64,000 nucleotides of DNA from Simonsiella muelleri ATCC 29453 (GTDB lineage Bacteria > Pseudomonadota > Gammaproteobacteria > Burkholderiales > Neisseriaceae). Position 1 is the first letter of the stretch. Every line of letters starts with the position of its first letter. Shown here piece by piece: positions 1-64,000 of this stretch. The stretch is taken from positions 2,401,382 to 2,465,381 of the forward strand of contig NZ_CP019448.1 of assembly GCF_002951835.1 (NCBI RefSeq), written 5' to 3'. A program made the translations under genes and the position numbers. The notes beneath the pieces are model-generated. The model saw only the letters and a program-made list of their open reading frames with translations. It did no database searches and was not told the DNA's origin.

Positions 1-327
1 ATTCATAATGGTATGACTGCTGTTCATGATTTACACGGTGCGATGCACGGTGAAAAAGTGGCGTTTGGTTTGGTAGCGCAACTGGTCATGGAAGGCGCAT
101 CAACCGAAGAATTAGACGAAGTGATTGGCATCATGAAAGCAGTTGGTTTGCCTTTGACTTTGAAAGATTTGGGACTGAAAGAATTCAAAGAAACAGAATG
201 GCGACAAGTGGCTGAATTGTCTTGCGCGGAAGGCGAAACCATTCACAATGAGCCATTTAAAGTAACTCCTGATATGGTATACGATGCGATTGTTGCTGCG
301 GATAAATTATTGCAAACATATCAATAA
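1..327 (+). CDS. gldA: Glycerol dehydrogenase, C-terminal fragment. The 5' end lies outside the window.
   Basis: The ORF runs in frame from position 1. The C-terminal sequence (HNEPFKVTPDMVYDAIVAAD, GETIHNEPF) is typical of Fe-containing GldA-type alcohol dehydrogenases. Confidence 0.75.
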   Translation: MHNGMTAVHDLHGAMHGEKVAFGLVAQLVMEGASTEELDEVIGIMKAVGLPLTLKDLGLKEFKETEWRQVAELSCAEGETIHNEPFKVTPDMVYDAIVAADKLLQTYQ

Positions 328-335
328 CTATTTGA

Positions 336-411
336 CGTAAAGGCAGCCTGAAAGAGCAACGCGTTCAGCGAATCAAATTCACAAAATTATTTTTTCAGGC
401 TGCCTGAAAAT
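336..411. terminator. Inverted pair of DUS copies forming a stem-loop downstream of gldA.
   Basis: AGGCAGCCTGAAAG ... TTTTCAGGCTGCCTGAAAA, inverted and about 45 nt apart. The same arrangement recurs downstream of many genes in this window. Confidence 0.45.
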
Positions 412-570
412 TATTTTGGTTGGTTGTTTCGCTGAGTGCGTTGTCATTTTTAACGATCCTTTGATGGTTATTGAGATTAATTATCAAATAAAATCAATTA
501 CTCATCAAATACAGTCAGCAAAATTTTGTTATAATTCGTCTAACCATAACAACAATACATACTGATTGCC

Positions 571-1842
571 ATGATGAGACTAGCCACGATTGGTTTAAAC
601 CATCATACCGCGCCCGTTGCGATTCGTGAACGTTTGGCGTTTGCTGCTGCGACATTATCCGATGCTGTACGCGATTTGTTGCAGACGGTCGCAGCCGAAG
701 CGGTTATTTTATCCACTTGTAATCGCACGGAAATTTATTGCGTTGCCGATGCAGAAGACGTGATTGACTGGTGGGCAAATTATCATCAAATGAATGTAGA
801 TGAAATTCGTCCTTATTTATATACACACGGTTGCAGCGAAACCATTCATCACGCGTATCGCGTGGCGTGTGGTTTGGACAGCATGGTGCTGGGCGAGCCA
901 CAAATTTTGGGGCAAATGAAAGAAGCGGTACGCATTGCCACCGAACAACGTGCTTTGGGAACTTGGCTCAATGCCTTGTTTCAACGCACATTTGCTGTTG
1001 CCAAAGAGATTCGCAGTCATACTTGCGTAGGGGACAACACCGTGTCTATGGCATCTGCCAGCGTGAAAATGGCAGAAACTGTGTTTCCTGATTTGCATCA
1101 AACACGTGTTTTATTGGTGGGTGCTGGCGAGATGAATGAATTGGTGGCGACTTATTTTGCTGCCAAAAAACCGCTTGCAATGACCATCGCTAACCGCAGT
1201 TTGCCACGTGCTCAAGCCTTATGCGATAGCCTGATTGTGTCCGCAACTGCTTGTTCAATAAATGATTTACCGAAAATTATTCATCAATATGATGTGATTG
1301 TGTCTTGTACTGCCGCACCCATGCCGATTATTGGCAAACGCTTAATGGAACAAGCAATGGTGCAACGTGCTGGTAAACCGATTTTTATGTTGGATTTGGC
1401 TGTACCGCGTGATATTGAATCACAGGTTAATGAAATTAATGGTATTTATTTGAAAACTGTAGATGATATTGACAGTGTGGTGGCAACTGGTAAAGAGGCA
1501 CGGCGTGTGGCAGCGGCAGCGGCCGAGCAAATGGTGGCGAGCAAAGTAGCAGAATTTGTGGCATGGCAAAAACAGCGTCAGCGTGTGCCATTAATTTGCG
1601 CGTTACGTGATGAAGGTGAGCGGGCGCGGCAACAAGTTTTAAATAATGTAATCAAGCAATTAGAGAAAGGTTTAAGTCCACAAGAAGCTTTAGAACGCTT
1701 GTCAGTGCAATTAACCAACAAACTACTACACGCACCAACTCGTCTGTTAAATAAGGGAAATGACGAAACTTTGACGGCGGCGGTTTCACAAATTTATCGT
1801 TTACAGCCCCCGCAACATGAAAATGAACGGCGTTTAGCTTAA
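571..1842 (+). CDS. hemA: Glutamyl-tRNA reductase
   Basis: 423 aa. The N-terminus (LATIGLNHHTAPVAIRERLAF), the STCNRTEIY motif and the overall length match HemA. Confidence 0.93.
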   Translation: MMRLATIGLNHHTAPVAIRERLAFAAATLSDAVRDLLQTVAAEAVILSTCNRTEIYCVADAEDVIDWWANYHQMNVDEIRPYLYTHGCSETIHHAYRVACGLDSMVLGEPQILGQMKEAVRIATEQRALGTWLNALFQRTFAVAKEIRSHTCVGDNTVSMASASVKMAETVFPDLHQTRVLLVGAGEMNELVATYFAAKKPLAMTIANRSLPRAQALCDSLIVSATACSINDLPKIIHQYDVIVSCTAAPMPIIGKRLMEQAMVQRAGKPIFMLDLAVPRDIESQVNEINGIYLKTVDDIDSVVATGKEARRVAAAAAEQMVASKVAEFVAWQKQRQRVPLICALRDEGERARQQVLNNVIKQLEKGLSPQEALERLSVQLTNKLLHAPTRLLNKGNDETLTAAVSQIYRLQPPQHENERRLA

Positions 1843-1849
1843 ACTTAAA

Positions 1850-1888
1850 AACGTGTTATCTCATTAATTAGATAACACGTTTTCTTTC
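1850..1888 (+). terminator. Rho-independent terminator after hemA
   Basis: Stem AACGTGTTATCT / AGATAACACGTT followed by a T-tract. Confidence 0.6.
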
Positions 1889-2746: not shown

Positions 2747-3643
2747 ATGAACGCATCGGATTTTGGACAATTATTGGTTTTTCAAGCCATAGCCGAAGAA
2801 AAAAGCATCACTGCTGCTGCTAAAAAACTCAATTTGGCTGTGCCATCAGTTAGCAAGTCATTGAAATTACTAGAACATAAAATGGGGGTGCCTTTATTCA
2901 CACGTACCACACGCACCATTCAATTAACCGATTCAGGTTTGCAGCTGTGGCAAAATACGTCTGCGCATTTAATTGCACTGAATCAAGCATTTGAAGAAGT
3001 CAGTGAACAACATCAAACGCCGCGTGGCACCGTCAAAATTACCTTATCCCAAGTGCATTTTGATTTGATTTTTAAAGATATTTTGCTGGATTTTTATGCC
3101 CAATATCCACACATCACGTTGGATTTTTCTATTAATAATGCAACCGTGAATCTGGCAGAGCAGGGGTTTGATTTGGGCATCCGTTTTGGTAACACGCTGG
3201 CAGATGGCGTGGTAGCACGGAAAATTTATCCATCTATTCGGCAAGGTATTTATGTTTCAAATAGTTATGTGGAAAAATATGGCATACCACAATCACCGAA
3301 TGACTTGGCGGCGCATCGCATGATTGGTTTTTATTTTATGACCGCGAAAAAAATTGAACCGTTTTTATTAAATATTGATGGAGTGGTTCAGGAAGTTTTT
3401 GTACATAATGTATTGATTTTAAATGATACAGATAAAATCATCAGTGCCATACATGCAGGCGTGGGGATTGGGCGAATTTTTGATAATGCACCTGATGTGG
3501 CGTTAAATGGGCTGATTCCTGTGTTGGAAGAGAACTGGTTGTGTTTTCCTGAAACATTTTTATATTTTATGCCAAATCGTTACAAGGCAAAACGCGTGCA
3601 GGTGGTCATTGATTTTTTGTTGCAAAAAAATCAGGCAGCCTGA
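2747..3643 (+). CDS. LysR-family transcriptional regulator
   Basis: N-terminal HTH (ITAAAKKLNLAVPSVSKSLKLLE) followed by a substrate-binding domain, 298 aa. Confidence 0.85.
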   Translation: MNASDFGQLLVFQAIAEEKSITAAAKKLNLAVPSVSKSLKLLEHKMGVPLFTRTTRTIQLTDSGLQLWQNTSAHLIALNQAFEEVSEQHQTPRGTVKITLSQVHFDLIFKDILLDFYAQYPHITLDFSINNATVNLAEQGFDLGIRFGNTLADGVVARKIYPSIRQGIYVSNSYVEKYGIPQSPNDLAAHRMIGFYFMTAKKIEPFLLNIDGVVQEVFVHNVLILNDTDKIISAIHAGVGIGRIFDNAPDVALNGLIPVLEENWLCFPETFLYFMPNRYKAKRVQVVIDFLLQKNQAA

Positions 3644-3674
3644 AAGGTGTTGTCAGACTGCCTGAAATAAAAAT

Positions 3675-4976
3675 TTATGACCAGATGAGTAAAGCGTGAT
3701 TGCGTTTACCACGTCTCACAATAGTATATTTACCAAAACGTTTGTTTTCATGAGTAATTTGGTATTTATCATCGGGTTTTTCGGGGGTGAAATGAGGATT
3801 ATTTTCCACAGCTACCGCACCATTAATTAACACTGCACCATTTTGTACAAAACCACGGGCTTCTTTATTGGATTGTGCTAAACCTGCTTGTACCAAGGCT
3901 TCCACAACATTCAGGCTGCCTGAAACCATAATTGTGGGTAAACCATCTAATGCCAACTGCGCATAATCCTGTTCCGTCAAATTGCTTTCATCGCCTGAAA
4001 ATAGACTGTCGGTAATGCGTTGGGCAGCTTGCAACGCAACATCGCCATGAATTAAACGTGTCATTTCTTCGGCTAAAATGCGTTGTGCTTTGGGTTTTTT
4101 TCCACTGGCCTTATCAGCAGTTTCAATTTCATCAATTTTTTTGATGGATAAAAAGGTAAAGTATTTCAAAAATTTATATACGTCAGCATCAGCTACTTTC
4201 AGCCAAAATTGGTAAAATTGATATGGTGATGTTTTCGCTGCATCAAGCCATACTGCGCCACCTTCGGTTTTGCCAAATTTGGTGCCGTCGGCTTTGGTGA
4301 CTAAAGGCAGTGTCATACCATGTACTGATTGTTGATTTAAACGGCGCGTGGTTTCTGTCCCCCAAGTAATGTTACCCCATTGGTCGCTACCGCCAATTTC
4401 TAATTTAACATTGTGCCGTTTATTTAATTCAGCAAAATCATAACCTTGAAGTAAAGCGTAAGCAAATTCAGTGAATGAAATTCCTTGGTCTTCGCGTTCA
4501 ATGCGTTGTTTGACGGCTTCTTTTGCCAACATGGCATTGACAGAAAAATGTTTGCCAATATCACGCAAAAAATCCAAACAATTCATCGTACCGAACCAAT
4601 TGGCGTTGTTTTCCATAATGGCTGGGTTTTCGCCATCAAATTTCAAAAATGGTTTCAATTGGTTACGAATACTTTCTACCCAACCTGCAACGGTTTCAGG
4701 TGTGTTTAGGCTGCGTTCTACAGCTTTAAAACTGGGGTCGCCGATCATACCTGTTGCACCGCCTACCAATGCCACTGGGGTATGTCCTGCATCTTGGAAA
4801 CGACGTAACACCAGTATCGGTAATAAATGCCCGATGTGTAAACTGTCTGCTGTGGGGTCAAAACCGCAATACAAAGCAATTTTTTCTGAATCTAATAAAT
4901 TAGATAATTCTTGAATATCAGTTGTTTGAGAGATTAATCCGCGCGCTTGCAAATCGGCTAATAATGGATTCATCAA
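3675..4976 (-). CDS. tyrS: Tyrosyl-tRNA synthetase
   Basis: HIGH motif (LHIGHLLP), KMSKS-like motif KFGKT, and a C-terminal S4 domain. There is a DUS inside the coding sequence at about 3908. Confidence 0.93.
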
Positions 4977-5222
4977 AATTCCTTATGAATAAAATAGATA
5001 AAAAATAGTTTTAGGCAGCCTGAAAATGAACAAAGCTTTATCCTGATAAAAACGCGTTGCATTATAAAGAAAAAAAGCCATGAAAACCAGTTTCAGGCTG
5101 CCTGAAAAATAGAGCACATGATTTTAGCTTTGATGAATAAATATTCAAAAAGTTCAGATTTCGCTATAATAAAAAATTTTGGTAAGATGTATCTGAATGT
5201 TAAAAAATTTAAGGATAACTAT

Positions 5223-5975
5223 ATGATTCGTAAACCTTCTAAATTTCGCGTACACGCGTTTTTATGGCATTTATTGTGTTCGCTCATTATGGCAACATTG
5301 AGTTCTGCGGTGGTTTTTTGGATATGGCATCCTGGATTATTGGCAAAAGCGGTGGGTGTGGGGCATATTTTTTTGATGATGTTGGCGGTTGATGTGATTT
5401 TGGGGCCATTGCTGACTTTTGCGGTGGCAAAACAAGGCAAAAAATCATTAAAATTTGATTTATCAGTGATTATTTTTGTACAAGTGGCGGCATTGATTTA
5501 TGGTTTGCACAGTATTGCGGCGAATCGTCCTGTGTATTTAGCTTTTGATATTTGGCGTTTTGAAATTGTCCGTGCCAGTGATGTGCGTCCCGAAGCATTG
5601 AAACGTGCTCAAAGTCCTTATAATCATTTATCGTGGTTTGGGCCCAAATGGGTGGCGGTAAAACCTGCAACCACAGCAGAAGACAAAAATAATCGTTTAT
5701 TTGGAGAATTATCCACAGGTATTTCCCCAGGTATGCAGCCTGATTTATATGATTCTATTGAAAATCAATGGAATGTGATTGTTTCAGAAGGAGCAAAATT
5801 AAGTGATTTGAAAAAATTCAATCCGCCTGAAAAAGTAGATGCGGTAATAGCTAAATATCCGACTGCTGATAAATTTTATCCGCTTAAATCGTTGGGTACC
5901 AGTATGACAGTGTTGATTAATTCCAAAGAAAAACGCATTTTGGATTTAGTGGATTTGCGTCCTTGGGAAGAATAA
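5223..5975 (+). CDS. Hypothetical polytopic membrane protein, possibly a TfpZ/FimB-like type IV pilin accessory protein
   Basis: Start moved to the ATG at 5223, which has an AAGGA ribosome-binding site. Three to four N-terminal transmembrane helices are followed by a soluble domain. The TfpZ assignment rests only on my recollection of the family architecture. Confidence 0.35.
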   Translation: MIRKPSKFRVHAFLWHLLCSLIMATLSSAVVFWIWHPGLLAKAVGVGHIFLMMLAVDVILGPLLTFAVAKQGKKSLKFDLSVIIFVQVAALIYGLHSIAANRPVYLAFDIWRFEIVRASDVRPEALKRAQSPYNHLSWFGPKWVAVKPATTAEDKNNRLFGELSTGISPGMQPDLYDSIENQWNVIVSEGAKLSDLKKFNPPEKVDAVIAKYPTADKFYPLKSLGTSMTVLINSKEKRILDLVDLRPWEE

Positions 5976-6407: not shown

Positions 6408-6885
6408 GAAAAACTCCAAAAAAAAATAATAAAAAATCGCGATAAACGGGTAGTTTAAAGCACCGAATGCAATACGCTTGCCATGCGGATTACCAGGTTC
6501 CCACTTATTGGCAGGATTTGCCAACTTGTTTTGCTGCCTAGAAATTGCAGGGGTATGCAATCTTGAGCGTACAACCCAACGGTTACCAGGTTACCACTCG
6601 CCAGCTTAAATTATTTGGCTGACTCATTTTACTGCCCAGAAACTGGTTATATTATAGGGTTTAATTTTATTTTGGTAAAGATGTATATATATTTGTTTTG
6701 ATTTTTGGGAAAGATTATTTTCAAGGTAAAAATAATTTTCAGGCAGCCTGATTATTCACATGGTCAAAAATCGTCTATTTGTACTTTGATATAATCGCTT
6801 TTGACTAAAAAGTTGCAGCACGCCTAAATTGTCAATCGCCCCTAAGGCGATTAAGGCGATCCAAAAATAGAAAAAAGGTTTATTT

Positions 6886-7767: not shown

Positions 7768-7850
7768 ATTTTCAGGCTGCCTGAAAACGGTTAAAATGCG
7801 AAAGTATATACGCTATTTTGGCGTATGATTTTTTACAAGGATAGGATTGA

Positions 7851-9364: not shown

Positions 9365-9415
9365 AAGGCAGCCTGAAAATAAATGAAATATTTTCAGGCT
9401 GCCTTATATTGTAAA
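9365..9415. terminator. Inverted DUS pair between the convergent cueR and fumarase genes
   Basis: AGGCAGCCTGAAAATAAATGAAATATTTTCAGGCTGCCTTA. Confidence 0.5.
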
Positions 9416-10993: not shown

Positions 10994-11161
10994 AGAACCT
11001 GTGTTCACAGCCAAACGTGATGTCTTTTTGCCCCATTTAGCACGTCTGCTGTGTTGAATTTCATGCCAATAGGAAGAACGCTATTGGCGCGAAATTCGCC
11101 TAGCATTCGCCCCAACTGGGACAAAAATCCATTTCACGTTGGCTATGAATACAGGTTCTTA
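10994..11161. mobile_element. MITE copy B (about 168 bp), in the same orientation as copy A. Copies A and B bracket the fumarase gene.
   Basis: TAGAACCTGTGTTCACAGCCAAACGTGATG ... CGTTGGCTATGAATACAGGTTCTTA. Confidence 0.75.
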
Positions 11162-53182: not shown

Positions 53183-53275
53183 AAAAATTCCTTTAAAAAT
53201 AGCCCCTTATTCTGTACGATAAGGGGCGTTAGGTTTATCAAAAAAAGAATATTGGATTATTCAGGCTGCCTGAAA

Positions 53276-53836
53276 TTATTTCACATCTACCCATTTATGA
53301 CCGCAAGCGTATTTTTCCGTGTGTGGCTGTGAATGAGACAATGAGCCACCAAATCCGCCAATACTGCGCACCATGCGCGTACAGTACACCGTTTGTAATT
53401 CGGTTTTGACCGTAGTCCATTCGTGGTTTTCGTAGGCAGCGCAATAGCTGGGTTTAGTTTTACTCACAACAAAACGGCGATTTTGACCCAAACCCACATA
53501 ATGCCCGATTTTATTCAACTCGGCGGCATCGCAACGTCCAGCACCCTTTGCCAACGCATTAACCAGTTGGGGCATATTCGGTTCTCTGCTGGACGGACAC
53601 AAATTCAAGAAATCCTTACGCGCCTGAATGGTTTTATATGGCTTTTTCAGTTTGATGGAAAAATAGCGGTGCAAAGATTCCGCGCATTCGTTCGGACGTT
53701 CTGCGCTGGACAAGCACAAAATTGCTTCACACGCCAAGCGGGTATCGCCTGTGAGCAAATCGTCTGCATGAGCCGAAAGCGGCACAAAAAAAGTGGCAGA
53801 AACAGCCGTTACCACCAGCAATTTTTTCATTTTCAT
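53276..53836 (-). CDS. Secreted protein, TrbM-like
   Basis: Signal peptide, then DLLTGDTRLACEAILCLSS, as I recall for TrbM-family proteins. Confidence 0.45.
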   Translation of the reverse strand: MKMKKLLVVTAVSATFFVPLSAHADDLLTGDTRLACEAILCLSSAERPNECAESLHRYFSIKLKKPYKTIQARKDFLNLCPSSREPNMPQLVNALAKGAGRCDAAELNKIGHYVGLGQNRRFVVSKTKPSYCAAYENHEWTTVKTELQTVYCTRMVRSIGGFGGSLSHSQPHTEKYACGHKWVDVK

Positions 53837-53935
53837 GATAAAACACTCCTAAAATAGATAGGTTAAAACAGTCATTTGCAAAAATTTTGCAAAACAAAAC
53901 CAGCTTGTTCAAACTGGCTTGGGTTTGCAACCATT

Positions 53936-54361
53936 TCAGGCTGCCTGAAATACTTTTTCATCAGAAAAATAAGTGTTTGGGTAACGGCGGTAAATGCTTT
54001 TTCTCAAACGCTCATACGTGGCTTGGACATTGGGAAACTTACGCTTTTTCCTGCTTCTGACCATTTCTAGCATGACTTGACCGCGCCCATTTTTCGGCGG
54101 ACGGTATACGGCAATTACTTCAACCAAACCGTTGCGTTCGCGTACCAGCATAACTGTTTCACGGTTCAAATCATCATAGGTAATTTTGTCGTAGTTACCA
54201 ATCAAACTGTCCACACTGAATTTTGCGTGTGTCAGCGCGGTTTCACGGCTCATGCCATGCGCCAACATCTTTTTAAATTGGCTGTAAATATGGTTGCGCT
54301 GTTGAGCAAATTTAGGCTCGGCAATCGGTTTTAAGATTTGAGCCAAGGTTTTGTTTTTCAT
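53936..54361 (-). CDS. Small basic protein; candidate oriT-binding (TraK-like) accessory protein
   Basis: Start moved to MKNKTLAQ at 54361. 141 aa, basic. It is the first gene of the leftward operon, next to a roughly 600 bp ORF-free, repeat-containing region. Confidence 0.3.
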   Translation of the reverse strand: MKNKTLAQILKPIAEPKFAQQRNHIYSQFKKMLAHGMSRETALTHAKFSVDSLIGNYDKITYDDLNRETVMLVRERNGLVEVIAVYRPPKNGRGQVMLEMVRSRKKRKFPNVQATYERLRKSIYRRYPNTYFSDEKVFQAA

Positions 54362-55066
54362 AACAACACCTAAATCAATTAAAACATTGCAACCACTCAC
54401 CCAGCCAAAGCTAAGCGAGCGGTGCAACTTCATAAGGAATAATTTTAAAAACAATATTTAAAATCACACGATTTCATAGCGGAGCATTGCTCAACGCTGC
54501 CTGAAACCCTGTATTCGCTGCCTACTGCCGCAGCGTTAGAACCATTCCGTAGATAGATTCCAGCATTGGGAATACGTCCCAATTCATCAAGATACGTTCA
54601 AATTGTCGCCTGTTCACGGACGCACAATGCGCTACCCGTATGCACGGACATTTCAACTGCTTGGGGCTGATTGAATGCAGCCTGAAACCCAATTACACGA
54701 CTTACTTTCTGAAATCAATCAGGGAAGTTGGGTTACTTGCGTTTCCAAATTGTTAAAGAACTGTGATACCTGCACAGCTCAAATTAAACACTACGTTTAA
54801 GAAAAAATCAACACTTTGTTTAAATTTCAAAATAAACTTTTGATAGTAAATGAAATATTTTTTAAGAGATTTACAGTAAGTTTAATTTTTGATGATTTTG
54901 AGCAAGATATAGATAGCAAAAATCCCCGTGGCAACGGGGATTAATGTATGGCTCTCGTCTGATGATTAACCACGTCATGGAGTAAGCACGAAACGGAAAG
55001 TTATTGTCAGGGGAAATAGGCTTGGAAGTGAACCATAAGGCTATTTTAGCGGAGGTTCTGTTTTAA

Positions 55067-55375
55067 CTAAAAACCATCAAGCTGATTAGATTTAGGATAT
55101 TTTTTATTAAATACGTCCCATTCAGGCACTTCCCCATATTTTTCTTGATATTCACTATATGCAAACACATCCCATTCAGGTGGAGGAGCTGGTTTTTGTG
55201 TTTTAACCGCAGGCTTTTCATTAGAAGTAGAAATTTTAGTAGGATTTATAATTGGTGTTTCATGTGTTGGCGGTGATATTGTATAGTAATTTTTTGTTGT
55301 ATGTACACAAGATGTAGTTAATACTGATACGATACATAAGTTAAAAAATTTACTCATGATTTTCTCACTTTTCAT
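55067..55375 (-). CDS. Putative lipoprotein with a duplicated PEWDVF motif
   Basis: Signal peptide with an LTTSC lipobox-like sequence, a Pro-rich linker, and two copies of the motif (Y/V)PEWDVF. Confidence 0.35.
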   Translation of the reverse strand: MKSEKIMSKFFNLCIVSVLTTSCVHTTKNYYTISPPTHETPIINPTKISTSNEKPAVKTQKPAPPPEWDVFAYSEYQEKYGEVPEWDVFNKKYPKSNQLDGF

Positions 55376-55988
55376 AATTAAGGAAAATTCTTTTTAATTC
55401 AACAGCAATGCCAATAATTTGTGTATCAGTTGGCATAATTTCTGGCATCTGATTGTTATATTTTAAAAAATACTGGTTTTTTAAATCAATAGATAATTTA
55501 GCAACAATCCCACGTTCATTTGATGATACGAGTACAACATGGTTATGTTGTGCTTTTAAATGTGGATTGATAAGTAAAATATCATCTTTAAAAATGCCTA
55601 TACTTTGTAGTTCATCATTTGGTATTTTGACCCAAAATGGTATTTTGGGTGGTGCTGTAATAACTTGATTTAAATCCAATAATTTAAAATTTTTTTGACT
55701 ATTTGCAATTACAGTACCATAATTTTCATTAACAAAATGATTGATATTCCCTGTATTGTTGATGTTGGTAACTGCATTACTTTTCTCAATCAGCATTTCT
55801 CCCTTACCTGTTTTAACCCAGTTAGATGAAACATTTAATTTTTCTTGAATATCTAAAATTCCTTGATTTGAAATACCACGTTTTTCCCAATTTTTAACAA
55901 CTTGTGGGGAAGTGTTGAGTAAATGGGCAATTCCTGTTTGTGTATTTACTTGAAAAAGCTCCTGTGTCGCAGCGTATAGCCTTTGCAT
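55365..55988 (-). CDS. CI-like repressor (XRE HTH plus S24 LexA-like peptidase domain)
   Basis: N-terminal HTH. The C-terminal S24 fold (GIFKDDILLINPHLKAQHNHVVLV) includes the Ser/Lys dyad context. Confidence 0.7.
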   Translation of the reverse strand: MQRLYAATQELFQVNTQTGIAHLLNTSPQVVKNWEKRGISNQGILDIQEKLNVSSNWVKTGKGEMLIEKSNAVTNINNTGNINHFVNENYGTVIANSQKNFKLLDLNQVITAPPKIPFWVKIPNDELQSIGIFKDDILLINPHLKAQHNHVVLVSSNERGIVAKLSIDLKNQYFLKYNNQMPEIMPTDTQIIGIAVELKRIFLNYEK

Positions 55989-56138
55989 TGTGATGTCCAT
56001 AATGTATCTGTTTCAATTCTTTACAGTCCATAACTGCTAAATTATCCCTGATTTAAACAAAATGTTGTTAAACGCATTGTTTGACTTTTTATTAAACATA
56101 GTGTTTAATTTAAGCATTTTTAAACATGGAGTTTTGTT

Positions 56139-56327
56139 ATGAATGCCAACGAGCCATCAGACAAAAAGATTATTGAACAATTAGGTGGCACAAGTCAGGT
56201 GGCAAAATTGATAAAAGCCAGTCCACAACGTGTCCATAACTGGAAAAATCGGGGTATTCCAGCTTCTGTTAAATTAGCTTATCCTGAATTATTTCTAATT
56301 ACCCAAATTTCAAAAGAGCAAAAATAA
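56139..56327 (+). CDS. Cro-like small HTH regulator, divergent from the cI-like gene
   Basis: 62 aa. HTH LGGTSQVAKLIKASPQRVHNWKNRGIP. Confidence 0.55.
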   Translation: MNANEPSDKKIIEQLGGTSQVAKLIKASPQRVHNWKNRGIPASVKLAYPELFLITQISKEQK

Positions 56328-56333
56328 AGCCCA

Positions 56334-57179
56334 TTGGCTGCAACCAAATGGGCTTTCAAATGCTTTTATTACAAGCAGAAAGTTTACCATAAAATGCTTT
56401 TATTGCAAACCCTTAAATCACATCTCAACGAAGAATGCGCCATTGTTTACCGCGAATTTAGCGCAATTTGTGGCACAAATGTTCAGGCTGCCACGATGTT
56501 GTCCAAATTCGTGTATTGGTCTGATGTCGTTCATCGCACCGAGCCGCAAAAATGTGGCTGGTTCTACAAAACCGCCCAACATCTTTACGATGAATTGGGC
56601 TTAACTCGTCGTGGCTATGAAAAAGCACGAAACTTTCTGATTTCACAGGGTTTACTGCAATACAGACGCGGTGGCGTTCACGGTAAAATGCACTTTTGCG
56701 TGAATTTTGGGCGTTTGCTGGAAATGGTTTATGAAATTAAAGGTATGGTTGCACCAAAAAATATTTTGCAAACCCAAATTGACCGCGACAATTACACCAT
56801 TCCCAAATTTATTCCATTGGACAAATGGAATGATTATCTTGATGTTTACAAAGATAAAAAAGGCAAATTTCCCAGCAATAAACAAAAAAGTGCCTTGATT
56901 AAGCAGTTGGCACGTTTGCGTGGCAAATTTGATTTGAATGTGGTTATGGAACGCAGTATTGTTGCTGGTTGGATTGGCTTTTATTCGCCTGAATATCAGC
57001 CCAGCCAAGTGAATAGCTATCAAGAACAAAAACACATTCAAGCCATTCAAAAAGAAATCCAAGAGCAACAGAGACAACGTGAGAGCCAAGCTCCACCGCG
57101 TAGTGAAGCCGCCAAGCAGGAACAAAAGCAAATTATGGCGGAGATAATGAAACACCTGAAAAAGGCTAAAAAGTGGTGA
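56334..57179 (+). CDS. Hypothetical protein; candidate replication / primosome-loading protein of the element
   Basis: It lies downstream of the cro-like gene. It has a Q/K/E-rich basic C-terminal tail. An iteron-like repeat cluster follows. Confidence 0.3.
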   Translation: MAATKWAFKCFYYKQKVYHKMLLLQTLKSHLNEECAIVYREFSAICGTNVQAATMLSKFVYWSDVVHRTEPQKCGWFYKTAQHLYDELGLTRRGYEKARNFLISQGLLQYRRGGVHGKMHFCVNFGRLLEMVYEIKGMVAPKNILQTQIDRDNYTIPKFIPLDKWNDYLDVYKDKKGKFPSNKQKSALIKQLARLRGKFDLNVVMERSIVAGWIGFYSPEYQPSQVNSYQEQKHIQAIQKEIQEQQRQRESQAPPRSEAAKQEQKQIMAEIMKHLKKAKKW

Positions 57180-57606
57180 AATCGTTGTAATTTTGCCTGT
57201 TTTGGTGTGCCTGATTTGGTGGGTAACTGTATATTTTATTTAGATTTTTATTTAATTTTTCCCAAAATGCACCCGTATAACACCCAAAATGGGTGTTTTT
57301 TATTTATGCTTTCGTTGAATGGCGTTTCAGGCAGCCTGAAACGTATTTCTGCCTATTTTTTAAGTAAAAAACCGCATTCATTCATCAAGTAGAAAATGTT
57401 TTAAAATCATGTCTTTGTACATTTTGAACAATGTACTTTGAACAAAATGTACATTGTACTTTGCTCAAAATGGACGCACTCTATACAAAGAATACTTTCA
57501 AAGATTACGCCAAAGAAAATGAGCGCGGTCGCGCTCGGTGGTATTTTGATTTTTTGTTTATCAGAAAGAAAATGCGTGTGGCAGGGATAGTTTTTCTTGA
57601 TAAAAT

Positions 57607-57879
57607 TTGCCCAATTTCCGTGAAAACATTGAATTTGCCAAATACCGTGAACCGATTGCCATTACACAATACGGCAAACCTGCTGTGGTTTTGATGAGTT
57701 ATGAAGAAGCGGTTAATTTATTGAACATCAAAGAAAAAGCATATTCAGATGAACGAGTGCCCAATGAATTAACTCGCCAAGCCATGCAAGAATTGAGAGA
57801 TGACCGTCAGAGCCGACATTTGAAACGACATGATAGCGTAGAAGCTATGATAGCGGATATTCAGGTGTTTGAAGAATGA
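57607..57879 (+). CDS. Phd/YefM-family antitoxin-like protein
   Basis: IEFAKYREPIAITQYGKPAVVLMSYEEAVNL matches the YefM/Phd N-terminal fold signature. Its stop overlaps the start of the next ORF (ATGA). Confidence 0.65.
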   Translation: MPNFRENIEFAKYREPIAITQYGKPAVVLMSYEEAVNLLNIKEKAYSDERVPNELTRQAMQELRDDRQSRHLKRHDSVEAMIADIQVFEE

Positions 57880-58433
57880 ACCGTACACTTGTACCGAGAA
57901 TACGCGAAATTCAAGCTGAATTTTTGGCTCAGCTGCCCGATGAATTACATCAAGGACAAGTTGGGCGTGTTGCCAAACGTTTTGCATTGGTGGCAACAGC
58001 GTTGGAAATGTCGCGTTCTATTACATGCATTATGCAGGGCATGGGTATGTTAATGGTGCAAAAGTGTTTTGATGATTGGCTCAACCGTACAGGTGCTGGT
58101 AAACAAGAAGATTTGAAAATCATCAAGAAAATGGCGGACTTTATGCAACTAAACGCTGACAATGGGCGTTTTGCTCAATGGGACGCTAAAATCACATCGT
58201 CCAACCATGCAGGGTATTTCAGGAAAGTGGATTATGGTAAAAGTACCCACTATTGGATGGTACCGGCGGTGTTTGAACAGGAAATTTTTCAGGGTATTGA
58301 TATTCAAAAAGTGTGTCAGGTTCTGTGTGATTTGGGGTGGTTAATCCGCCCTAATGATAAAAACTGGAAGCATTTGAAACGTGATAAAGGGCGTTTTTAT
58401 GTTATTAAAGGAATTGAAATTCCTGAAAAATAA
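57876..58433 (+). CDS. Hypothetical 185 aa protein translationally coupled to the Phd/YefM-like gene. It is not Doc-, RelE- or YoeB-like.
   Basis: A 4-nt overlap with the upstream gene. I recognise no Fic motif or RelE fold. Confidence 0.4.
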   Translation: MNRTLVPRIREIQAEFLAQLPDELHQGQVGRVAKRFALVATALEMSRSITCIMQGMGMLMVQKCFDDWLNRTGAGKQEDLKIIKKMADFMQLNADNGRFAQWDAKITSSNHAGYFRKVDYGKSTHYWMVPAVFEQEIFQGIDIQKVCQVLCDLGWLIRPNDKNWKHLKRDKGRFYVIKGIEIPEK

Positions 58434-58999
58434 TCTATTTTTTACTCAAAGCCATCAATCATTGATTTTGATTGATGGCTTTTTGTAACACCTTGTATCG
58501 CCCGTATCGCCCAGTATTATTCTAAATAATTTATTTAAATTCAATAATGTAACAGGTGTAACACCTGTAACTCCCAACTTTACCATTATTTGAATTTAGA
58601 AAATAACTTTATTTAAGAAACAATCATATTTAGGGTATTACGGGTGTTATATCTTTTAACCATATGTTTTTATTAATAAATATTTTATTATTAGGGTGTT
58701 ACAAAGGTGTTACGAGGCTGTTACATCCATTTATCAAAGAAAAAAATTTGGTGGAATGCCAAAAATTGTTGGGGTCCTGATTTTTTTAATAAAAAAAAAT
58801 TTGATTTATCAGGAAAAAAATCGTCAGAAGAAAAAATGCCTTTCGGTGGAGTTTTGGCAGTAGTGGATAAACCTGTTTTCTGATGATTATTTAATTGAAT
58901 TTAAATGGAAAAAAGTTTTATTTTTTTAAAAAATAACTTGATTTACACACGATTCGTGTGTATAATGGCTTTATTAAATGTTAAACAGGAACTTCAATT

Positions 59000-59323
59000 A
59001 TGAACCATTTAGACACCCAACTGCAAAAAGCCCAAGTTAAACAAGCGTGGGAAGATGTCCGCAAAAAGCGTTTAGAAAACGATTTGACCGAACAACTGAA
59101 CGAAATCCAAATCAAAAAAGCCGAATTAGACTTGGCACAACACGAACAATTACAGGAGATTGAAAGACGTAAACAATTGGCGGAACTCGCTAAACTGGAA
59201 CAGGAAGCCAACCACATTTTATTAGCAAGTAAGGTAGGTGCTTCAATTTTGGCGGTGGTTTCGTTTATTGTGGTTACAATCATTACAATTTATGAGAAAC
59301 TGAAAGCCGTATTTGGCGGTTAA
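59000..59323 (+). CDS. Hypothetical coiled-coil protein with a C-terminal transmembrane anchor
   Basis: 107 aa. Q/E/K-rich heptads followed by a hydrophobic tail. Confidence 0.35.
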   Translation: MNHLDTQLQKAQVKQAWEDVRKKRLENDLTEQLNEIQIKKAELDLAQHEQLQEIERRKQLAELAKLEQEANHILLASKVGASILAVVSFIVVTIITIYEKLKAVFGG

Positions 59324-59493
59324 AATTAAGGCGATATGGGATAGCAATTATCTCATATCCACTAAAACTTAAATCATTGAACAATATGGAGATTTGAAAT
59401 GATTAAAGAAAATAAAACAGTAGCTGAACAACTAGATTTTGAATTGGCTGAAATCAAAAAGAAACATGAACTTGCCAATAAAAAGGCGGTCGT

Positions 59494-59751
59494 ATGGATT
59501 ATTTTAATGTTGTTATTGACGCTTTGGTTTTGGTCGTGGTTATGATGAATTTCCCTGAAATTGGCTACACGCCAGCGAATTTGCGTTATGTATTGGAACA
59601 AATGAGGTGGACACAAAAAGAGCTTGCAGAGCGTTTAAACGTCAGTTTAAGGGGCGTTCAAGCGTGGGTAGCAGACGTGGACAAACCAGCCCATAGGGAT
59701 ATGCCTGTAAGCCAATGGCAAGCCTTACTTGTGCTTATTCAGGCAGCCTGA
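59494..59751 (+). CDS. Small HTH (XRE-like) DNA-binding protein
   Basis: HTH WTQKELAERLNVSLRGVQAW. Confidence 0.4.
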   Translation: MDYFNVVIDALVLVVVMMNFPEIGYTPANLRYVLEQMRWTQKELAERLNVSLRGVQAWVADVDKPAHRDMPVSQWQALLVLIQAA

Positions 59752-59977
59752 AACAGCAAAAATCGCCTATTTCTACAATAGCGGAAATAGGCGATTTTTT
59801 TAACTATTGTTGAATAGCGTTTGCCTAATTCTACGTTCATTTTCTGCTCCAACCACTTGATTAAATCATCTCTATTTTCAAATTTAGGAACAGCCACGAA
59901 ATCATCTTCAACTCGTGATTTCACGCGTTTGAAATCAAAATTAAATACTTATTGTTTCATCGTTTTTTTCCATATTG

Positions 59978-60385
59978 CTAAATCAAATCATCAATATCAC
60001 GCTGTTCACGCGAATTGAATTTTTTGAAACCTGTGTTAATCGGGTGGCGGTCATTTTCGGTTGGTGGTGGAGTGGTGGTTTTCGCTGGTGGTGGCACATC
60101 ATTTTTTACCACAGGCTCAAGTTGGGCAGGTTTGGACGGTTGAGCCTGATTAGGGCGTGTTTTTTGGGTTGGCACGGTGGCTGTTTGGCTTCTATTCTTG
60201 ATAAATGATTTGAGCGTGGTTAAGCCCACTTGTAAGCCATTTTCTTGCAAAAATGCCAAAATTTGGGCTTGTGAGTAGCCTTCATTTTTCAGGAAAAAAA
60301 TGTCATCTTTGAACGGCTCTAATTTGGAAACACGCCCTTTTTTGGGATTTTTGTTGATAAATTCTTGTACAGATTGGCTAATCAT
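59978..60385 (-). CDS. Hypothetical DNA-binding protein (HTH plus a Pro/Thr-rich linker)
   Basis: Start moved to MISQSV at 60385. Possible HTH YSQAQILAFLQENGLQVGLTTLKSFI. Confidence 0.35.
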   Translation of the reverse strand: MISQSVQEFINKNPKKGRVSKLEPFKDDIFFLKNEGYSQAQILAFLQENGLQVGLTTLKSFIKNRSQTATVPTQKTRPNQAQPSKPAQLEPVVKNDVPPPAKTTTPPPTENDRHPINTGFKKFNSREQRDIDDLI

Positions 60386-60774
60386 AGTTGTTTTATCGGC
60401 TAAATTAAGGCTAAATAAGGTCAATTATAGTCTAAATATTGGACTATTTAAAGTCCAAATTAAGCCGTTTAAAGTCTATTTTAAAGTTGCATTATGGTTT
60501 ACTTAAATCTAATTTATGGCTAATTTTGGTTTAATTGAAGTCTAAATATGGTCTATGGTGTGGGTTATATATTTTTTGTTTAAAAACCTTAAAAATTTAG
60601 AACGCAGGATAGGCACAACGTGCCAAAAACACCGCTAAATGCGATGTTTTACATTCCGCGTTCGCGGAAACGCCCCTTGTGGGGCTGGTTCATCAGGCAA
60701 AAAGAAAAGGCACTCCGAAGCCCATAGCGGACTTCGGAATGCCTTTGGTGTCAGAAAAAAAGTAGGGCTGCGCG

Positions 60775-61905
60775 TCAGCGTTCCATTTCCCAATCATCAC
60801 GACTGGGATTTTTCGGCTCGGCTTTCGGCTCGCTGATTTGGGTTTGAGATTGTTGGTGAGAATGCGCGTGGCGGTCGTAGATTTGTTGGGCTTGAGTATC
60901 CAAACTTTTTCCTGAAACTTCTTTGGCAAAATCTTTCATGATTTTGGCTTCGGTTTTGTAACCCAATTTGTACAATTCCCTCGAAATCAAGCTGTACTGC
61001 TCTGTAATGTGGTCTTTGGCTTGCTGAGCTTTTCCCTGAAAAGGATGTTGCGGTCGCTGTTGCGCTTGCAGAGCTTCTAAAATCGCTTCAACATTGGTTT
61101 GGGCAATGTGGCTGCGCTTGATGTTTTCAGGCTGCTTGCCCTGTTTTTCTTCCTGTATGGTTCGGAGAATGATTTGGCGAATGTCGGCTTTCTGCCCTTT
61201 AATGCTCTGCCCACGATGTTGTCGCCGCGTGGCGGTGCATTCTACACCTTGTTCACGCATTTTTTCAGCAAAACGGACGCGCCACTCAAACAAATCATTT
61301 TTGCGTGGATTTAAGCGGATACCATCATAATCCCTAACCATGACACACAAATGGACGTGTGGGTGTGGTGGCTCGCCGTCTCGCTCGCTTTCATGGTGCA
61401 ACACAAAGGCATATTCATGTTTTTCAAACTGTTCAGCCGCAAATTGGCGAGCCGCATTCAGTACGGCTTGCGGTGGCGTACCTGCGGGCATGGACAGCAC
61501 AATGTTAATCGCTTCGCGTTTGTCGGAATTTTCGCGTATGCCCGATTTTTGCCAATGGTTCATCAAGGATTGAATGGCTTGATTACCTTGAACTTTGTCG
61601 CCGTCTCGGGTTTCAAGTGGTAATTCGCCATTACGCGAAATGTATTTCATGTGGTTTTGTACACCGTTAATTCCTTTGGAATTTTTACTAACACGTTTGG
61701 CAATTTTAACCATCACTTCAGGCTTTTTGGCGGCGGCTGCCTGTAAATTTTTGAGACCTGTGCCTGATTTTAAACCTGTTTTTGCAAACGGTTTGGTGTT
61801 GCGGTTTGGGTTACTGCCACCGCCCAAAGAACTGCGTTTGGGTTTTACCGCATGGGTTTTGTAGCCGATGAACCAGTCATCAATTTGTTTGTTTAGTTGC
61901 TGCAT
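60775..61905 (-). CDS. Relaxase / mobilization nuclease (MobA / VirD2-like, MOBP/Q type)
   Basis: Three-His motif HHESERDGEPPHPHVHLCV. 376 aa. The C-terminus ..RDDWEMER is shared with the partial relaxase at the window end. Confidence 0.8.
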   Translation of the reverse strand: MQQLNKQIDDWFIGYKTHAVKPKRSSLGGGSNPNRNTKPFAKTGLKSGTGLKNLQAAAAKKPEVMVKIAKRVSKNSKGINGVQNHMKYISRNGELPLETRDGDKVQGNQAIQSLMNHWQKSGIRENSDKREAINIVLSMPAGTPPQAVLNAARQFAAEQFEKHEYAFVLHHESERDGEPPHPHVHLCVMVRDYDGIRLNPRKNDLFEWRVRFAEKMREQGVECTATRRQHRGQSIKGQKADIRQIILRTIQEEKQGKQPENIKRSHIAQTNVEAILEALQAQQRPQHPFQGKAQQAKDHITEQYSLISRELYKLGYKTEAKIMKDFAKEVSGKSLDTQAQQIYDRHAHSHQQSQTQISEPKAEPKNPSRDDWEMER

Positions 61906-62446
61906 ACATCAATCTCCAACTTTCGCTGAATTTAAGCGGTTTTTCTTGCTTTTCCAGTACTTTGTAAACAATATCCGTGTGATAGTCCAAATATTCCACA
62001 AATTCATTAAGCTGTTTGGTGGTAAATGAATGCGGCGACATTTCATTAAATTTTCGTGCTATTTGATTGATATTTCGCCCAATTCGTAAAAGCTGGTAAT
62101 TGTATTGAAACAGAGCTTGAACCGCGTCATTGCCTAAAACAGGTTTTTTTGTAATGTATTCGGCGATGATGTCTCGGGCTACTTCGTTTAAGGTGCTATG
62201 TTGTTCTTTGGCTTTTTGGGTCAAATAAACCTGTTGCTTGGGTGGTAATCGCAAGGTTAAACGCTCAAATAATTGTTCTTCATGTGTATTCTCTATTTCA
62301 GTCTGCCTGATTTGCGCTTGTAACAATTTTTTGGCGAGTAGAGAAACGCTGGCTTTACCGTAGCGTTCTTTGGCGATTTGCCGCAATTGCTGAATTTCAT
62401 CAGTAGTTAAGCCATAAACATCTATTTTCTTTGATAAATTTTTCAC
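61880..62446 (-). CDS. mobC: Mobilization relaxosome accessory protein MobC
   Basis: Signature LRIGRNINQIARKFNE. It overlaps the relaxase start. Confidence 0.7.
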   Translation of the reverse strand: MKNLSKKIDVYGLTTDEIQQLRQIAKERYGKASVSLLAKKLLQAQIRQTEIENTHEEQLFERLTLRLPPKQQVYLTQKAKEQHSTLNEVARDIIAEYITKKPVLGNDAVQALFQYNYQLLRIGRNINQIARKFNEMSPHSFTTKQLNEFVEYLDYHTDIVYKVLEKQEKPLKFSESWRLMYAATKQTN

Positions 62447-62458
62447 TTTTTTCTCCGA

Positions 62459-62641
62459 CTATTCATAATTGATTGCGGTATCGTGTTTTAAAGTGCGCCG
62501 CCAATACTGTTTTTCACAGCGTTGGCAGTAATAGCGAAAGCGGCGGTCGCTGGCTTCGGTAACCACCACGCCAACACCGCAATTTTGGCAATAAAATTGA
62601 CGTGGTAAAGTCAAGTCGCCACTAAACTGCTTGACTTTCAT
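62459..62641 (-). CDS. Small zinc-ribbon protein
   Basis: CQNCG ... CQRCEK. 60 aa. Confidence 0.35.
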   Translation of the reverse strand: MKVKQFSGDLTLPRQFYCQNCGVGVVVTEASDRRFRYYCQRCEKQYWRRTLKHDTAINYE

Positions 62642-63191
62642 TTTCCAAATCTTTCAATAGATTACGGTAATATTCGGCAATCTCATCTTGTTGGCTGGCG
62701 GACAGTTTTTGGGTTGCATTGGGCAGTTTTTTCAGGCGAATAAGCTCATCAATTTGGCTTTGGCTTAATCGTTCATGCAACCATGCGGCACTTTCCAAAA
62801 TATCCTTACTAAACCAATAATTATGACAATGGTGGCAGAGTGCAGCCGCATTGTCGGGGTGGTAACGAATGCTGTAAAAACGCCGTGAAAAATGGTGGGA
62901 ACATTGCAGAGCTGTTGATTTTTTTGGGTATTGTTTGCCACAGCGTTCGCAACAATAGTTTGCCCTTGCTCTGATGTAGTCTGAAAAGGCTAAATCAGCG
63001 GCGGTATGGGTAAAGTTTTCGGTGGGTGTGTCGGGTTTCTCTTTGTGCAGTTTTTTCATTAAAACAATGGTTTCACTCAATAAATCATAGAGCGCGGTTT
63101 GCTGAAATTTTTTGCAATCACGTTGCCAAATTTTCAACTGAGCGATGTGTGCTTCAATCGGGTTGCTTTCTTTGAGTTTAATTACGGTCAT
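62622..63191 (-). CDS. HNH-like / zinc-finger nuclease-family protein
   Basis: CCERCG ... CSHHFSRR ... CHHCH. Confidence 0.4.
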   Translation of the reverse strand: MTVIKLKESNPIEAHIAQLKIWQRDCKKFQQTALYDLLSETIVLMKKLHKEKPDTPTENFTHTAADLAFSDYIRARANYCCERCGKQYPKKSTALQCSHHFSRRFYSIRYHPDNAAALCHHCHNYWFSKDILESAAWLHERLSQSQIDELIRLKKLPNATQKLSASQQDEIAEYYRNLLKDLENESQAV

Positions 63192-63266
63192 GGTGTTCTC
63201 CCAAAAACAAAACCCTGATTAACCATTTGGCTAAACAGGGTCTTATCTCAAAAATAAAAAATAAAA

Positions 63267-64000
63267 TCAGCGTTCCATTTCCCAATCATTATCACGGCTG
63301 GGCGCGCGCTCGTGTTTGGGTTCATGGACTTTTTCAGGCTGCCTGTCTTGCGTTTTCGCAGGGTCAGGCGCGTGATATTTGCCATCACGGATTAAATCGC
63401 TTTGGTTCTCGTAAATGGCTTGGCGCGTTTTTTCGTGGAACTCGGCTGGCATATGGCGCATGGCTGCCAATGCTTGCCGCTCGTAAAACCGTGCTTTGTG
63501 TTGCTGCTCGGTCGGCAGCGTTGCCAATTTGCTTTCGTATTGCGCTTTGGCGGTGTCGCTGGGCTTGGGCGCGTTGGTCTGCTGCGCTTGTGTGGCATGG
63601 GCTTTAACCGTGTCCGCCGCTTTGACTGCTTCAGTTGGAATGGTTTTCATGGTGCTTTCGGGACGTTCAGGCATGGCGGATTGCTGTTTTAGCTTTTCGG
63701 CTTCGGCAATACTGTTGGTGGCTCGTTCTTCGCGGCGGCGTTCCAAAATGGTTAAATCTTCGGGGCTGGGTTTGTAGCCTTTGGTGGCAATGCCGCGACT
63801 TTCTGCTTCCAACCACATTTGCTGCTTAAATTCTTGGCTGCCTGAAATTTTGATACTGTCCCAACCTTTGGCTTTTGCTACGTCCAACATATCTTGAATG
63901 GTTTGTTTGTCGTCTCGGGCGGTGTGTAGGGTTTTGCCTTTGTCTTCAAACAACACCGTTTTGGGATTGTCGGGTGCAGTGTAACGCAACAAATGTGCGC
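63267..64000 (-). CDS. C-terminal part of a second relaxase (LPD7-like tail). The 5' end lies outside the window.
   Basis: It ends ..SRDNDWEMER like the relaxase at 60775, and it contains KGWDSIKISGSQEFK...RGIATKGY. The nucleotide string CAGCGTTCCATTTCCCAATCAT is shared at both gene ends. Confidence 0.6.
   Translation of the reverse strand, partial: AHLLRYTAPDNPKTVLFEDKGKTLHTARDDKQTIQDMLDVAKAKGWDSIKISGSQEFKQQMWLEAESRGIATKGYKPSPEDLTILERRREERATNSIAEAEKLKQQSAMPERPESTMKTIPTEAVKAADTVKAHATQAQQTNAPKPSDTAKAQYESKLATLPTEQQHKARFYERQALAAMRHMPAEFHEKTRQAIYENQSDLIRDGKYHAPDPAKTQDRQPEKVHEPKHERAPSRDNDWEMER

Follow-up and report, generated by a model that had tools for sequence, protein, structure and literature searches.

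DNA uptake sequences (DUS) mark DNA as 'self' for uptake by Neisseriaceae, and the use of different DUS dialects restricts gene flow from one species to another. In Neisseria, ComP is the DUS receptor (PMC3868556), and uptake function has been proven there for the dialects AT-DUS (ATGCCGTCTGAA) and AG-DUS (AGGCCGTCTGAA). For Simonsiella muelleri ATCC 29453, Frye et al. 2013 (PLoS Genet 9:e1003458; PMC3630211) counted 2257 kingDUS 10-mers, 2292 simDUS 10-mers, and 1294 overlapping dyads of the two in the genome. The same authors defined simDUS in, and named it after, this species, in which they found a single comP gene. According to these counts, about 1960 10-mers of the genome, representing about 60% of the elements, are located outside dyads. 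The 'AG-king/simDUS dyad' was also found in Alysiella crassa, in Kingella negevensis, and in integrative conjugative elements of N. gonorrhoeae and N. meningitidis (Hughes-Games et al. 2020, PMC7371117). Here, we analyzed a stretch of 64,000 nucleotides of the S. muelleri ATCC 29453 chromosome (contig NZ_CP019448.1, positions 2,401,382 to 2,465,381; the whole stretch is called the window in the following), which contains a frequent short repeat, AGGCWGCCTGAA. This repeat is very probably the AG-kingDUS / AG-simDUS dialect of the Neisseriaceae DUS. It is thus already known, having been described in 2013 in the same genome, and its analysis adds no new biology.

Exact counting on both strands of the window yielded 50 copies of the kingDUS 12-mer AGGCAGCCTGAA and 39 copies of the simDUS 12-mer AGGCTGCCTGAA. 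A third 12-mer, AAGCAGCCTGCA, which had been named in an earlier annotation made from the letters alone (the sequence-only reading), had no copy on either strand of the window. From the base composition 0.008 copies were expected, which corresponds to an enrichment of approximately 10,000-fold over chance; the G+C content of the window is 40.5%. In 100 dinucleotide-preserving shuffles the number of copies of the counted 12-mers was zero in every trial, and therefore a chance origin of the repeat is excluded. In an unbiased k-mer count of the window, the king and sim words and their overlaps ranked top at all word lengths (k = 8 to 17), and no other DUS dialect was present in the 64 kb.

The 89 strand-specific hits represented 56 distinct elements. 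More than half of them (33, 59%) were the 15-bp dyad TTCAGGCWGCCTGAA, with the kingDUS word on one strand and the simDUS word on the opposite strand, and 22 of the 33 dyads were the full 17-mer TTTCAGGCWGCCTGAAA. The other 23 elements were single 12-mers, 17 kingDUS and 6 simDUS, and three of the six single simDUS turned out to be dyads with one mismatch. A further 23 elements deviated from the words at one position, resulting in a total of 79 elements or 1.2 per kb, in agreement with the estimate of the sequence-only reading of more than 60 copies at about one per kb. Every coordinate given in that reading was found to be a real element within a few bases, and the elements at 3656 and 40527 were one-mismatch copies (AGACTGCCTGAA and AAGCTGCCTGAA, respectively). 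The window contained 56 kingDUS 10-mers, 49 simDUS 10-mers, and 33 dyads, matching the values of 58, 59, and 33 that were expected when the published totals were scaled to 64 kb of the 2,482,394-bp chromosome. A genome-wide frequency no higher than chance had been named as the result that would speak against a DUS; the 2257 + 2292 published copies (PMC3630211) show the opposite.

The words are identical to the published kingDUS and simDUS (PMC3630211, PMC7371117), and the assignment of the dialect from the letters alone was correct, as was that of the taxon (Neisseriaceae of the Kingella, Simonsiella, or Alysiella type; in fact S. muelleri ATCC 29453). The palindrome that had been noticed to present one word on each strand is exactly what Frye et al. 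2013 called an 'overlapping dyad' (PMC3630211). With these published dyads the window shares the genome, the 12-mers, and the 15-mer, and nothing of substance differs; only local detail is added, namely the fractions of the elements (79%) and of the dyads (27 of 33) in the window that are located outside open reading frames (ORFs). The kingDUS 12-mer AGGCAGCCTGAA is also identical to AG-kingDUS of Kingella oralis, and it shares 10 of 12 bases, including the CTGAA end, with AG-DUS of Neisseria. AT-DUS and AG-DUS resemble the repeat of the window in their density of about one per kb, their intergenic bias, and their inverted pairs at terminators. In contrast to the repeat of the window, they are not self-complementary, and therefore their inverted pairs never overlap. 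The uptake signal sequence of Pasteurellaceae is likewise short, occurs about once per kb, and is enriched by biased uptake, but its sequence is unrelated, its receptor is a different one, and it is not palindromic.

The repeat AGGCWGCCTGAA has the characteristics by which a DUS is recognized. It is a 10- to 12-mer related to (A[TG])GCCGTCTGAA in which the CTG core and the GAA end are kept, it is extremely over-represented at about one copy per kb and heads the k-mer lists of the window, and its host belongs to the Neisseriaceae with one dialect per lineage. Furthermore, it is a short word lacking conserved flanks that occurs on both strands, is tolerated in genes, is enriched between genes, and forms inverted pairs at 3' ends. 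The nearest relative among the matches listed, Neisseria sp. GT4A_CT1 (L127), contained 34 mucDUS, 1 kingDUS, and 1 simDUS in 22 kb, showing that the king/sim motif is lineage-specific, as DUS dialects are.

Structure of the dyad and the balance of kingDUS and simDUS

The 9-bp core AGGCWGCCT is self-complementary, and the addition of TTC on the left alone turns the 12-mer into the 15-17-bp dyad (T)TTCAGGCWGCCTGAA(A), with the 15-mer written out as TTCAGGC(A/T)GCCTGAA. Completion of a dyad is thus cheap, because only TTC is needed. Three random bases upstream of a 12-mer would complete a dyad with a probability of 0.018, so about one dyad would be expected among 56 elements, compared with the 33 that were observed. 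Conservation of the dyads reached positions +/-8 (T upstream in 26 of 33, A downstream in 29 of 33), was weak at +/-9, and was absent further out, which argues for a word of 15-17 bp and against a longer or mobile element. On the plus strand, 14 dyads had A at the center and 19 had T.

The sequence-only reading had stated that the non-palindromic copies mostly read one word. This was true for the window, in which the exact single 12-mers comprised kingDUS and simDUS at a ratio of 17:6. However, genome-wide the non-dyad copies derived from the published counts are 963 kingDUS and 998 simDUS (PMC3630211), and the kingDUS excess among the single copies is therefore local. Even in the window it is smaller than it appears, as 8 of the 17 single kingDUS are arms of four hairpins and a hairpin arm fixes its partner, leaving 13:6 independent events; the ratio of non-dyad 10-mers was 23:16.

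For comparison, contigs of the IMG/VR database that carry the 17-mer dyad (loci L007-L126) were classed by G+C content. At least 120 viral or prophage contigs carry the dyad, at 0.5-0.7 DUS elements per kb, and their G+C classes mirror the host dialect: among the matches listed, the K. oralis-like contigs have mostly single kingDUS and the Simonsiella-like contigs mostly dyads. When the dyad-bearing viral loci were searched with the window, there was no match and no overlap among the matches listed. Of the contigs listed, those with a G+C content below 0.45 (Simonsiella-like) contained 12 king-only elements, 15 sim-only elements, and 59 dyads (69%), whereas those with a G+C content of at least 0.52 (K. 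oralis-like) contained 238, 20, and 117, respectively. Single kingDUS thus dominate in DNA of the K. oralis type and simDUS is almost solely the back of a dyad, whereas in DNA of the Simonsiella type the two words are balanced and dyads dominate. The possibility that kingDUS is the 'true' dialect and simDUS merely its reverse reading was therefore rejected for S. muelleri (13:6, 23:16, genome-wide 963:998, viral 12:15), while it does hold for K. oralis-like DNA. The center of the S. muelleri motif is a true A/T position, and kingDUS species have simDUS essentially as the reverse side of a dyad.

Placement of the elements relative to genes and putative terminators

Family scans and gene calls were used to check a gene list that had been generated from long ORFs. 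The names tyrS, edd, ribF, DEAD-box helicase (RhlE-like), radA, mnmG, gldA, cueR, fumarase, psd, and pilin, which had been given from the letters alone, were confirmed. The elements of the window are as follows (strand in brackets where one was assigned).

341-352 (+): single kingDUS AGGCAGCCTGAA, left hairpin arm with the dyad 394-408, 3' of gldA
394-408: dyad TTCAGGCTGCCTGAA
2269-2280 (-): single kingDUS inside the NAD-binding ORF 1944-2612
3633-3644 (+): single kingDUS over the lysR1 end; partner is the one-mismatch copy AGACTGCCTGAA centered at 3659, convergent lysR1/tyrS spacer
3910-3924: dyad inside tyrS
5013-5024 (+): single kingDUS, divergent tyrS/tfpZ spacer
5092-5106: dyad, tyrS/tfpZ spacer
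6738-6749 (-): single simDUS, degenerate dyad TTCAGGCAGCCTGAT
7771-7785: dyad directly 3' of lysR2
9366-9404: inverted kingDUS pair (9366-9377 +, 9393-9404 -), 17-bp stem, -27 kcal/mol, minus-strand TTTTT after fumA
12643-12657: dyad over the end of an ElyC-like ORF
12698-12712: dyad 5' of pilin gene 1
12857-12871: dyad 5' of pilin gene 1
14378-14416: inverted kingDUS pair (14378-14389 +, 14405-14416 -), -32.8 kcal/mol, minus-strand TTTTT after edd; also 3' of pilin gene 2
15427-15441: dyad inside edd
17260-17271 (+): single kingDUS, IS5 transposase/ribF spacer
18040-18051 (-): single simDUS (degenerate dyad) inside ribF
18415-18429: dyad, ribF/orf118 spacer
19924-19962: dyad 19924-19938 and degenerate dyad/simDUS 19951-19962; joint hairpin of -27 kcal/mol, orf311/rnhB
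21126-21140: dyad at the orf224 start
24209-24223: dyad inside the RhlE-like DEAD-box helicase gene
25423-25437: dyad, divergent rhlE/orf304 spacer
25521-25532 (-): single kingDUS, divergent rhlE/orf304 spacer
25993-26007: dyad inside orf304 (outer membrane protein beta-barrel)
28334-28348: dyad 5' of a C39-like peptidase ORF
29080-29091 (-): single simDUS inside orf672
31127-31160: kingDUS 31127-31138 and one-mismatch copy AGGCAACCTGAA (center 31156), hairpin with a 14-bp stem after orf672
31243-31257: dyad 5' of the Band_7 ORF
32839-32881: inverted kingDUS pair (32839-32850 +, 32870-32881 -), -27 to -29 kcal/mol, minus-strand TTTT after psd
34566-34580: dyad, divergent psd/Bax1-I spacer
34687-34701: dyad, divergent psd/Bax1-I spacer
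35472-35552: kingDUS pair 35472-35483 (+) / 35520-35531 (-) and dyad 35538-35552, directly 3' of the Bax1-I gene
38464-38478: dyad inside the 1050-aa LpxB-domain ORF
40500-40514: dyad; partner is the one-mismatch copy AAGCTGCCTGAA centered at 40527
42502-42516: dyad, def/radA spacer
43025-43036 (-): single simDUS inside radA
43944-44084: radA-mnmG cluster with dyads 43944-43958, 43997-44011, and 44070-44084 and kingDUS 44052-44063; the last two form a hairpin with a 13-bp stem, -23 kcal/mol
45815-45826 (+): single simDUS inside mnmG
47574-47588: dyad, MFS/permease spacer
49672-49686: dyad; partner is a one-mismatch copy centered at 49662
49733-49747: dyad 5' of orf229
51966-51980: dyad inside the tRNA-Lys island
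53260-53274: dyad inside the tRNA-Lys island, ParA-like/TrbM spacer
53935-53949: dyad inside the tRNA-Lys island, over the orf172 end
57326-57340: dyad inside the tRNA-Lys island
59738-59752: dyad inside the tRNA-Lys island
63333-63344 (-): single kingDUS inside orf241

ORFs cover approximately 79% of the window, and only 12 of the 56 elements are wholly inside an ORF, whereas 44 (79%; p ~1e-19) are not; of the dyads, 27 of 33 are not. The 12 intragenic elements are distributed over tyrS, edd, ribF, the RhlE-like helicase gene, radA, mnmG, the LpxB-domain ORF, and five others. Hence, each of the genes for which an internal copy had been claimed does hold one, and the copy that had been placed in the 'lpxB tail' is at 38471 in the 1050-aa LpxB-domain ORF. 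The densities in tandem, convergent, and divergent spacers were 3.4, 2.8, and 3.4 per kb, respectively, and this equal distribution fits permissive sites better than a transcription signal. Clusters were observed in the 166-bp radA-mnmG spacer (four elements) and in the 398-bp spacer 5' of the first pilin gene (three dyads).

Four non-overlapping inverted pairs of single kingDUS were found (9366/9393, 14378/14405, 32839/32870, and 35472/35520). Each of them lies directly 3' of a gene, in three cases within a convergent spacer, and their predicted stems have 14-17 bp and energies of -27 to -34 kcal/mol. The pairs 9366-9404, 14378-14416, and 32839-32881, with 16-17-bp stems of -27 to -33 kcal/mol, are followed on the minus strand by TTTT(T) directly after fumA, edd, and psd. 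These three thus show the arrangement of intrinsic (Rho-independent) terminators, a G+C-rich stem-loop and a T-run past the stop codon. The arms of the putative terminator pairs are clean non-dyad 12-mers, preceded by A-rich sequence rather than by TTC. Position, fold energy, and T-runs support the prediction that the non-overlapping inverted pairs serve as intrinsic terminator stems.

Mixed pairs of a single copy with a dyad or a degenerate copy are located after gldA, lysR1, orf672, orf311, and radA. The sequence-only reading had proposed inverted terminator pairs, which is supported by position, hairpin energy, and T-runs; however, the pair attributed to mnmG (44052-44084) is situated between radA and mnmG and follows radA. 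The spacer 3' of mnmG contains two hairpins, neither of which is a DUS, and hairpins unrelated to DUS were also found 3' of tfpZ and rpsI. A consensus terminator scan picked several single dyads as weak terminator-like sites with 6-9-bp stems, 3-nt loops, and T-rich tails. Single dyads were rejected as terminators in general, because their density is equal in divergent spacers and they fold into weak hairpins of about -7 kcal/mol.

Proposed uptake function and alternative explanations

By analogy with Neisseria, Kingella, and Eikenella, double-stranded DNA with the motif would be bound by the minor type IV pilin ComP, pilus retraction would pull the bound DNA into the cell, and recombination would fix it in the chromosome. 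Preferential uptake together with recombination could then spread the motif to about one copy per kb, mostly at harmless intergenic sites. The simplest reading of the dominance of dyads would be that position +3 is free to be A or T, such that 15 bp offer two receptor sites and recognition would be independent of orientation; the kingDUS/simDUS dyad is a curiosity in that it would give a valid signal on both strands at one site. By the same analogy, we infer that S. muelleri is naturally competent. The type IV pilus genes of the window encode two tandem 173-aa PilE-like major pilins (13055-14357) and an accessory protein of the TfpX/TfpZ family (5118-5975). The best PDB matches of the pilins were Neisseria PilE and a pilus entry. 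These pilins were also considered as the DUS receptor ComP and were rejected, because the structures matched at E <= 0.01 were PilE/PilA and included no ComP entry.

The window was 100% identical over 21.9 kb to GCA_000163775.2 (locus L002), which is also S. muelleri ATCC 29453 (PMC7371117), and an MnmG without any residue difference is encoded on contigs of both GCA_000163775.2 and GCA_020162275.1. This protein and the two pilins are named as S. muelleri proteins in their source records. Over 16 kb, the window shared 99% identity with four metagenomic S. muelleri contigs. Comparison of 17 elements in four strains revealed that one was deleted in two strains, three were point-changed in at least one strain, and one had a flipped center, namely the dyad at 44004, which was otherwise intact in one metagenomic strain. 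In addition, two degenerate copies of the window were perfect dyads in other strains. The strain differences show ongoing gain and loss of DUS.

Several observations weigh against an uptake signal. Frye et al. 2013 pointed out that functional verification of simDUS was still outstanding in S. muelleri (PMC3630211), and no later S. muelleri transformation experiment was found in the literature searched. The comP gene is not in the 64-kb window, in which, as stated above, no pilin matched a ComP structure at the threshold used. In four strains the DUS were not better conserved than other DNA, although an identity of 99% is too close to show selection or drive. Finally, the strong intergenic bias in the window differs from the remark of Frye et al., based on a preliminary annotation, that there was no obvious preference for sites inside or outside genes (PMC3630211); this is a small discrepancy and not surprising for a DUS. 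The practical value of the finding is limited, in that it identifies the taxon correctly. The local data set, with 79% intergenic elements and putative terminator pairs made solely of non-overlapping kingDUS, may be useful for the design of DUS-tagged constructs in a multicellular bacterium that is hard to manipulate.

A dimer-based recognition mechanism was suggested by Frye et al. 2013 (PMC3630211). In this case the dyad and not the 12-mer would be the recognized unit, with the 15-17-bp palindrome as the binding site of two ComP molecules or of a dimeric receptor, and single copies would be half-sites or decayed dyads. Such an arrangement would account for the high fraction of dyads among the exact elements (33/56, 59%; 69% in the Simonsiella-like viral contigs among the matches listed), for the symmetry out to +/-8 (26/33 and 29/33), for the three of six single simDUS that are one mismatch away from a dyad, and for the degenerate copies of the window that are perfect dyads in other strains. 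However, the terminator pairs use clean non-dyad 12-mers after A-rich sequence, and the K. oralis-type contigs have mainly single kingDUS (238 king-only versus 117 dyads among the matches listed). Moreover, ComP of Neisseria is described as a monomeric pilin that binds an asymmetric DUS. Together with the roughly 1960 10-mers of the genome that are not in dyads (PMC3630211), this makes recognition of the dyad as the unit rather unlikely; a palindrome read by a dimer is possible, but not favored. It is improbable that the 17-bp palindrome is a functional uptake signal read by two ComP subunits or a dimeric receptor and, at the same time, owes its intergenic placement to a selected role as a bidirectional hairpin. 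If the symmetric reading were true, the signal would be unique among known uptake signals in being palindromic.

The repeats could also be primarily signals for RNA or transcription, i.e. hairpin terminators or stabilizers, with their likeness to DUS being secondary. The strong 3' hairpins with T-runs that are formed by the inverted pairs, the single dyads picked by the consensus scan as short stems before T-rich tails, and the 79% of intergenic elements would fit this explanation, but we regard it as very unlikely. The density is equal in divergent (5'-5') and 3' spacers, single dyads fold at only about -7 kcal/mol, and 12 copies are intragenic, with tyrS, edd, and radA among the ORFs concerned. 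If a hairpin were all that is needed, the stem would be free to vary in sequence, but the word is invariant, and hairpins unrelated to DUS serve elsewhere, e.g. after mnmG, tfpZ, and rpsI. Palindromic structure and abundance in spacers would also be expected for a mobile or selfish repeat similar to repetitive extragenic palindromes or miniature inverted-repeat transposable elements, for the operator of a dimeric regulator, or for a restriction-modification target, and the GCWGC center is of a kind that is recognized by some type II enzymes. All three are extremely unlikely. In-frame copies are present inside essential genes. No conservation was seen beyond 17-19 bp and flanking repeats were absent, in contrast to mobile repeats, which are conserved over tens to hundreds of bases and have terminal repeats or target duplications; restriction targets are normally avoided, whereas this motif is enriched about 10,000-fold; and about 1300 dyads genome-wide (PMC3630211) are far too many for an operator, nor are the dyads tied to promoters. 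We regard a DUS as the best explanation of the repeat.

The tRNA-Lys island and further genes and repeats

A strain-variable integrated element directly follows the tRNA-Lys gene (50539-50614) in the region 50539-64000 of the window. It encodes an integrase (50619-51701, minus strand) as well as HTH_17 excisionase-like, ParA/CbiA-like, TrbM, S24 peptidase repressor-like, and MobC-like proteins. A second attachment (att) repeat was not found within the window, indicating that the island runs past 64000, and the island had no megablast match in plasmid or phage collections. It is present in GCA_000163775.2 (L002) and in the metagenomic strain L208. CP083930.1 (L001) and the metagenomic strains L207, L209, and L210 lack it at this site, where a gene for an FAD-binding protein follows.

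The island carries six DUS of the host dialect, and its lower density (0.45 versus 0.99 per kb elsewhere) was not significantly different (p = 0.07). The conjugative islands of Hughes-Games et al. (PMC7371117) contain the same dyad, and such mobile islands carry the dialect of a host in which they have resided; the tRNA-Lys island of the window likewise has dyads. In contrast, the islands of N. gonorrhoeae and N. meningitidis are located beside tRNA-Asn in a foreign AT-DUS background (PMC7371117), whereas the island of the window shares the dialect of its host.

Apart from this site, CP083930.1 and the window show 100% identity over 16.4 kb. Comparison of L001 16425-16490 with window 50530-50655 revealed that CP083930.1 is devoid of the 5' 58 bases of tRNA-Lys, while the 3' end is kept. 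This truncation looks like the far junction of the island, a rearrangement, or an assembly difference.

The 1050-aa ORF at 36793-39945 (minus strand) combines an LpxB domain match with internal near-tandem repeats at 37398-37800 (about 92% self-match when shifted by 57-63 bp). Between strains the ORF ranges from 988 to 1050 aa, and no gene is called for it in CP083930.1. The 516-aa ORF at 32893-34443 (minus strand) starts with a complete phosphatidylserine decarboxylase of 215 aa, which is followed by an extension of about 300 aa with a weak TolA-like match. The sequence-only reading had joined psd and a flotillin; psd is indeed in this ORF, but the Band_7/SPFH domain is encoded by the adjoining ORF of 472 aa. 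A gene for an IS5-family transposase (16350-17105) is situated in the interval between edd and ribF. Lastly, an intergenic repeat of about 155 bp occurs twice with 86.5% identity, at 11004-11159 in the fumA-ampD spacer and at 49488-49639 in the BON-orf229 spacer, the latter corresponding to L001 15381-15532.

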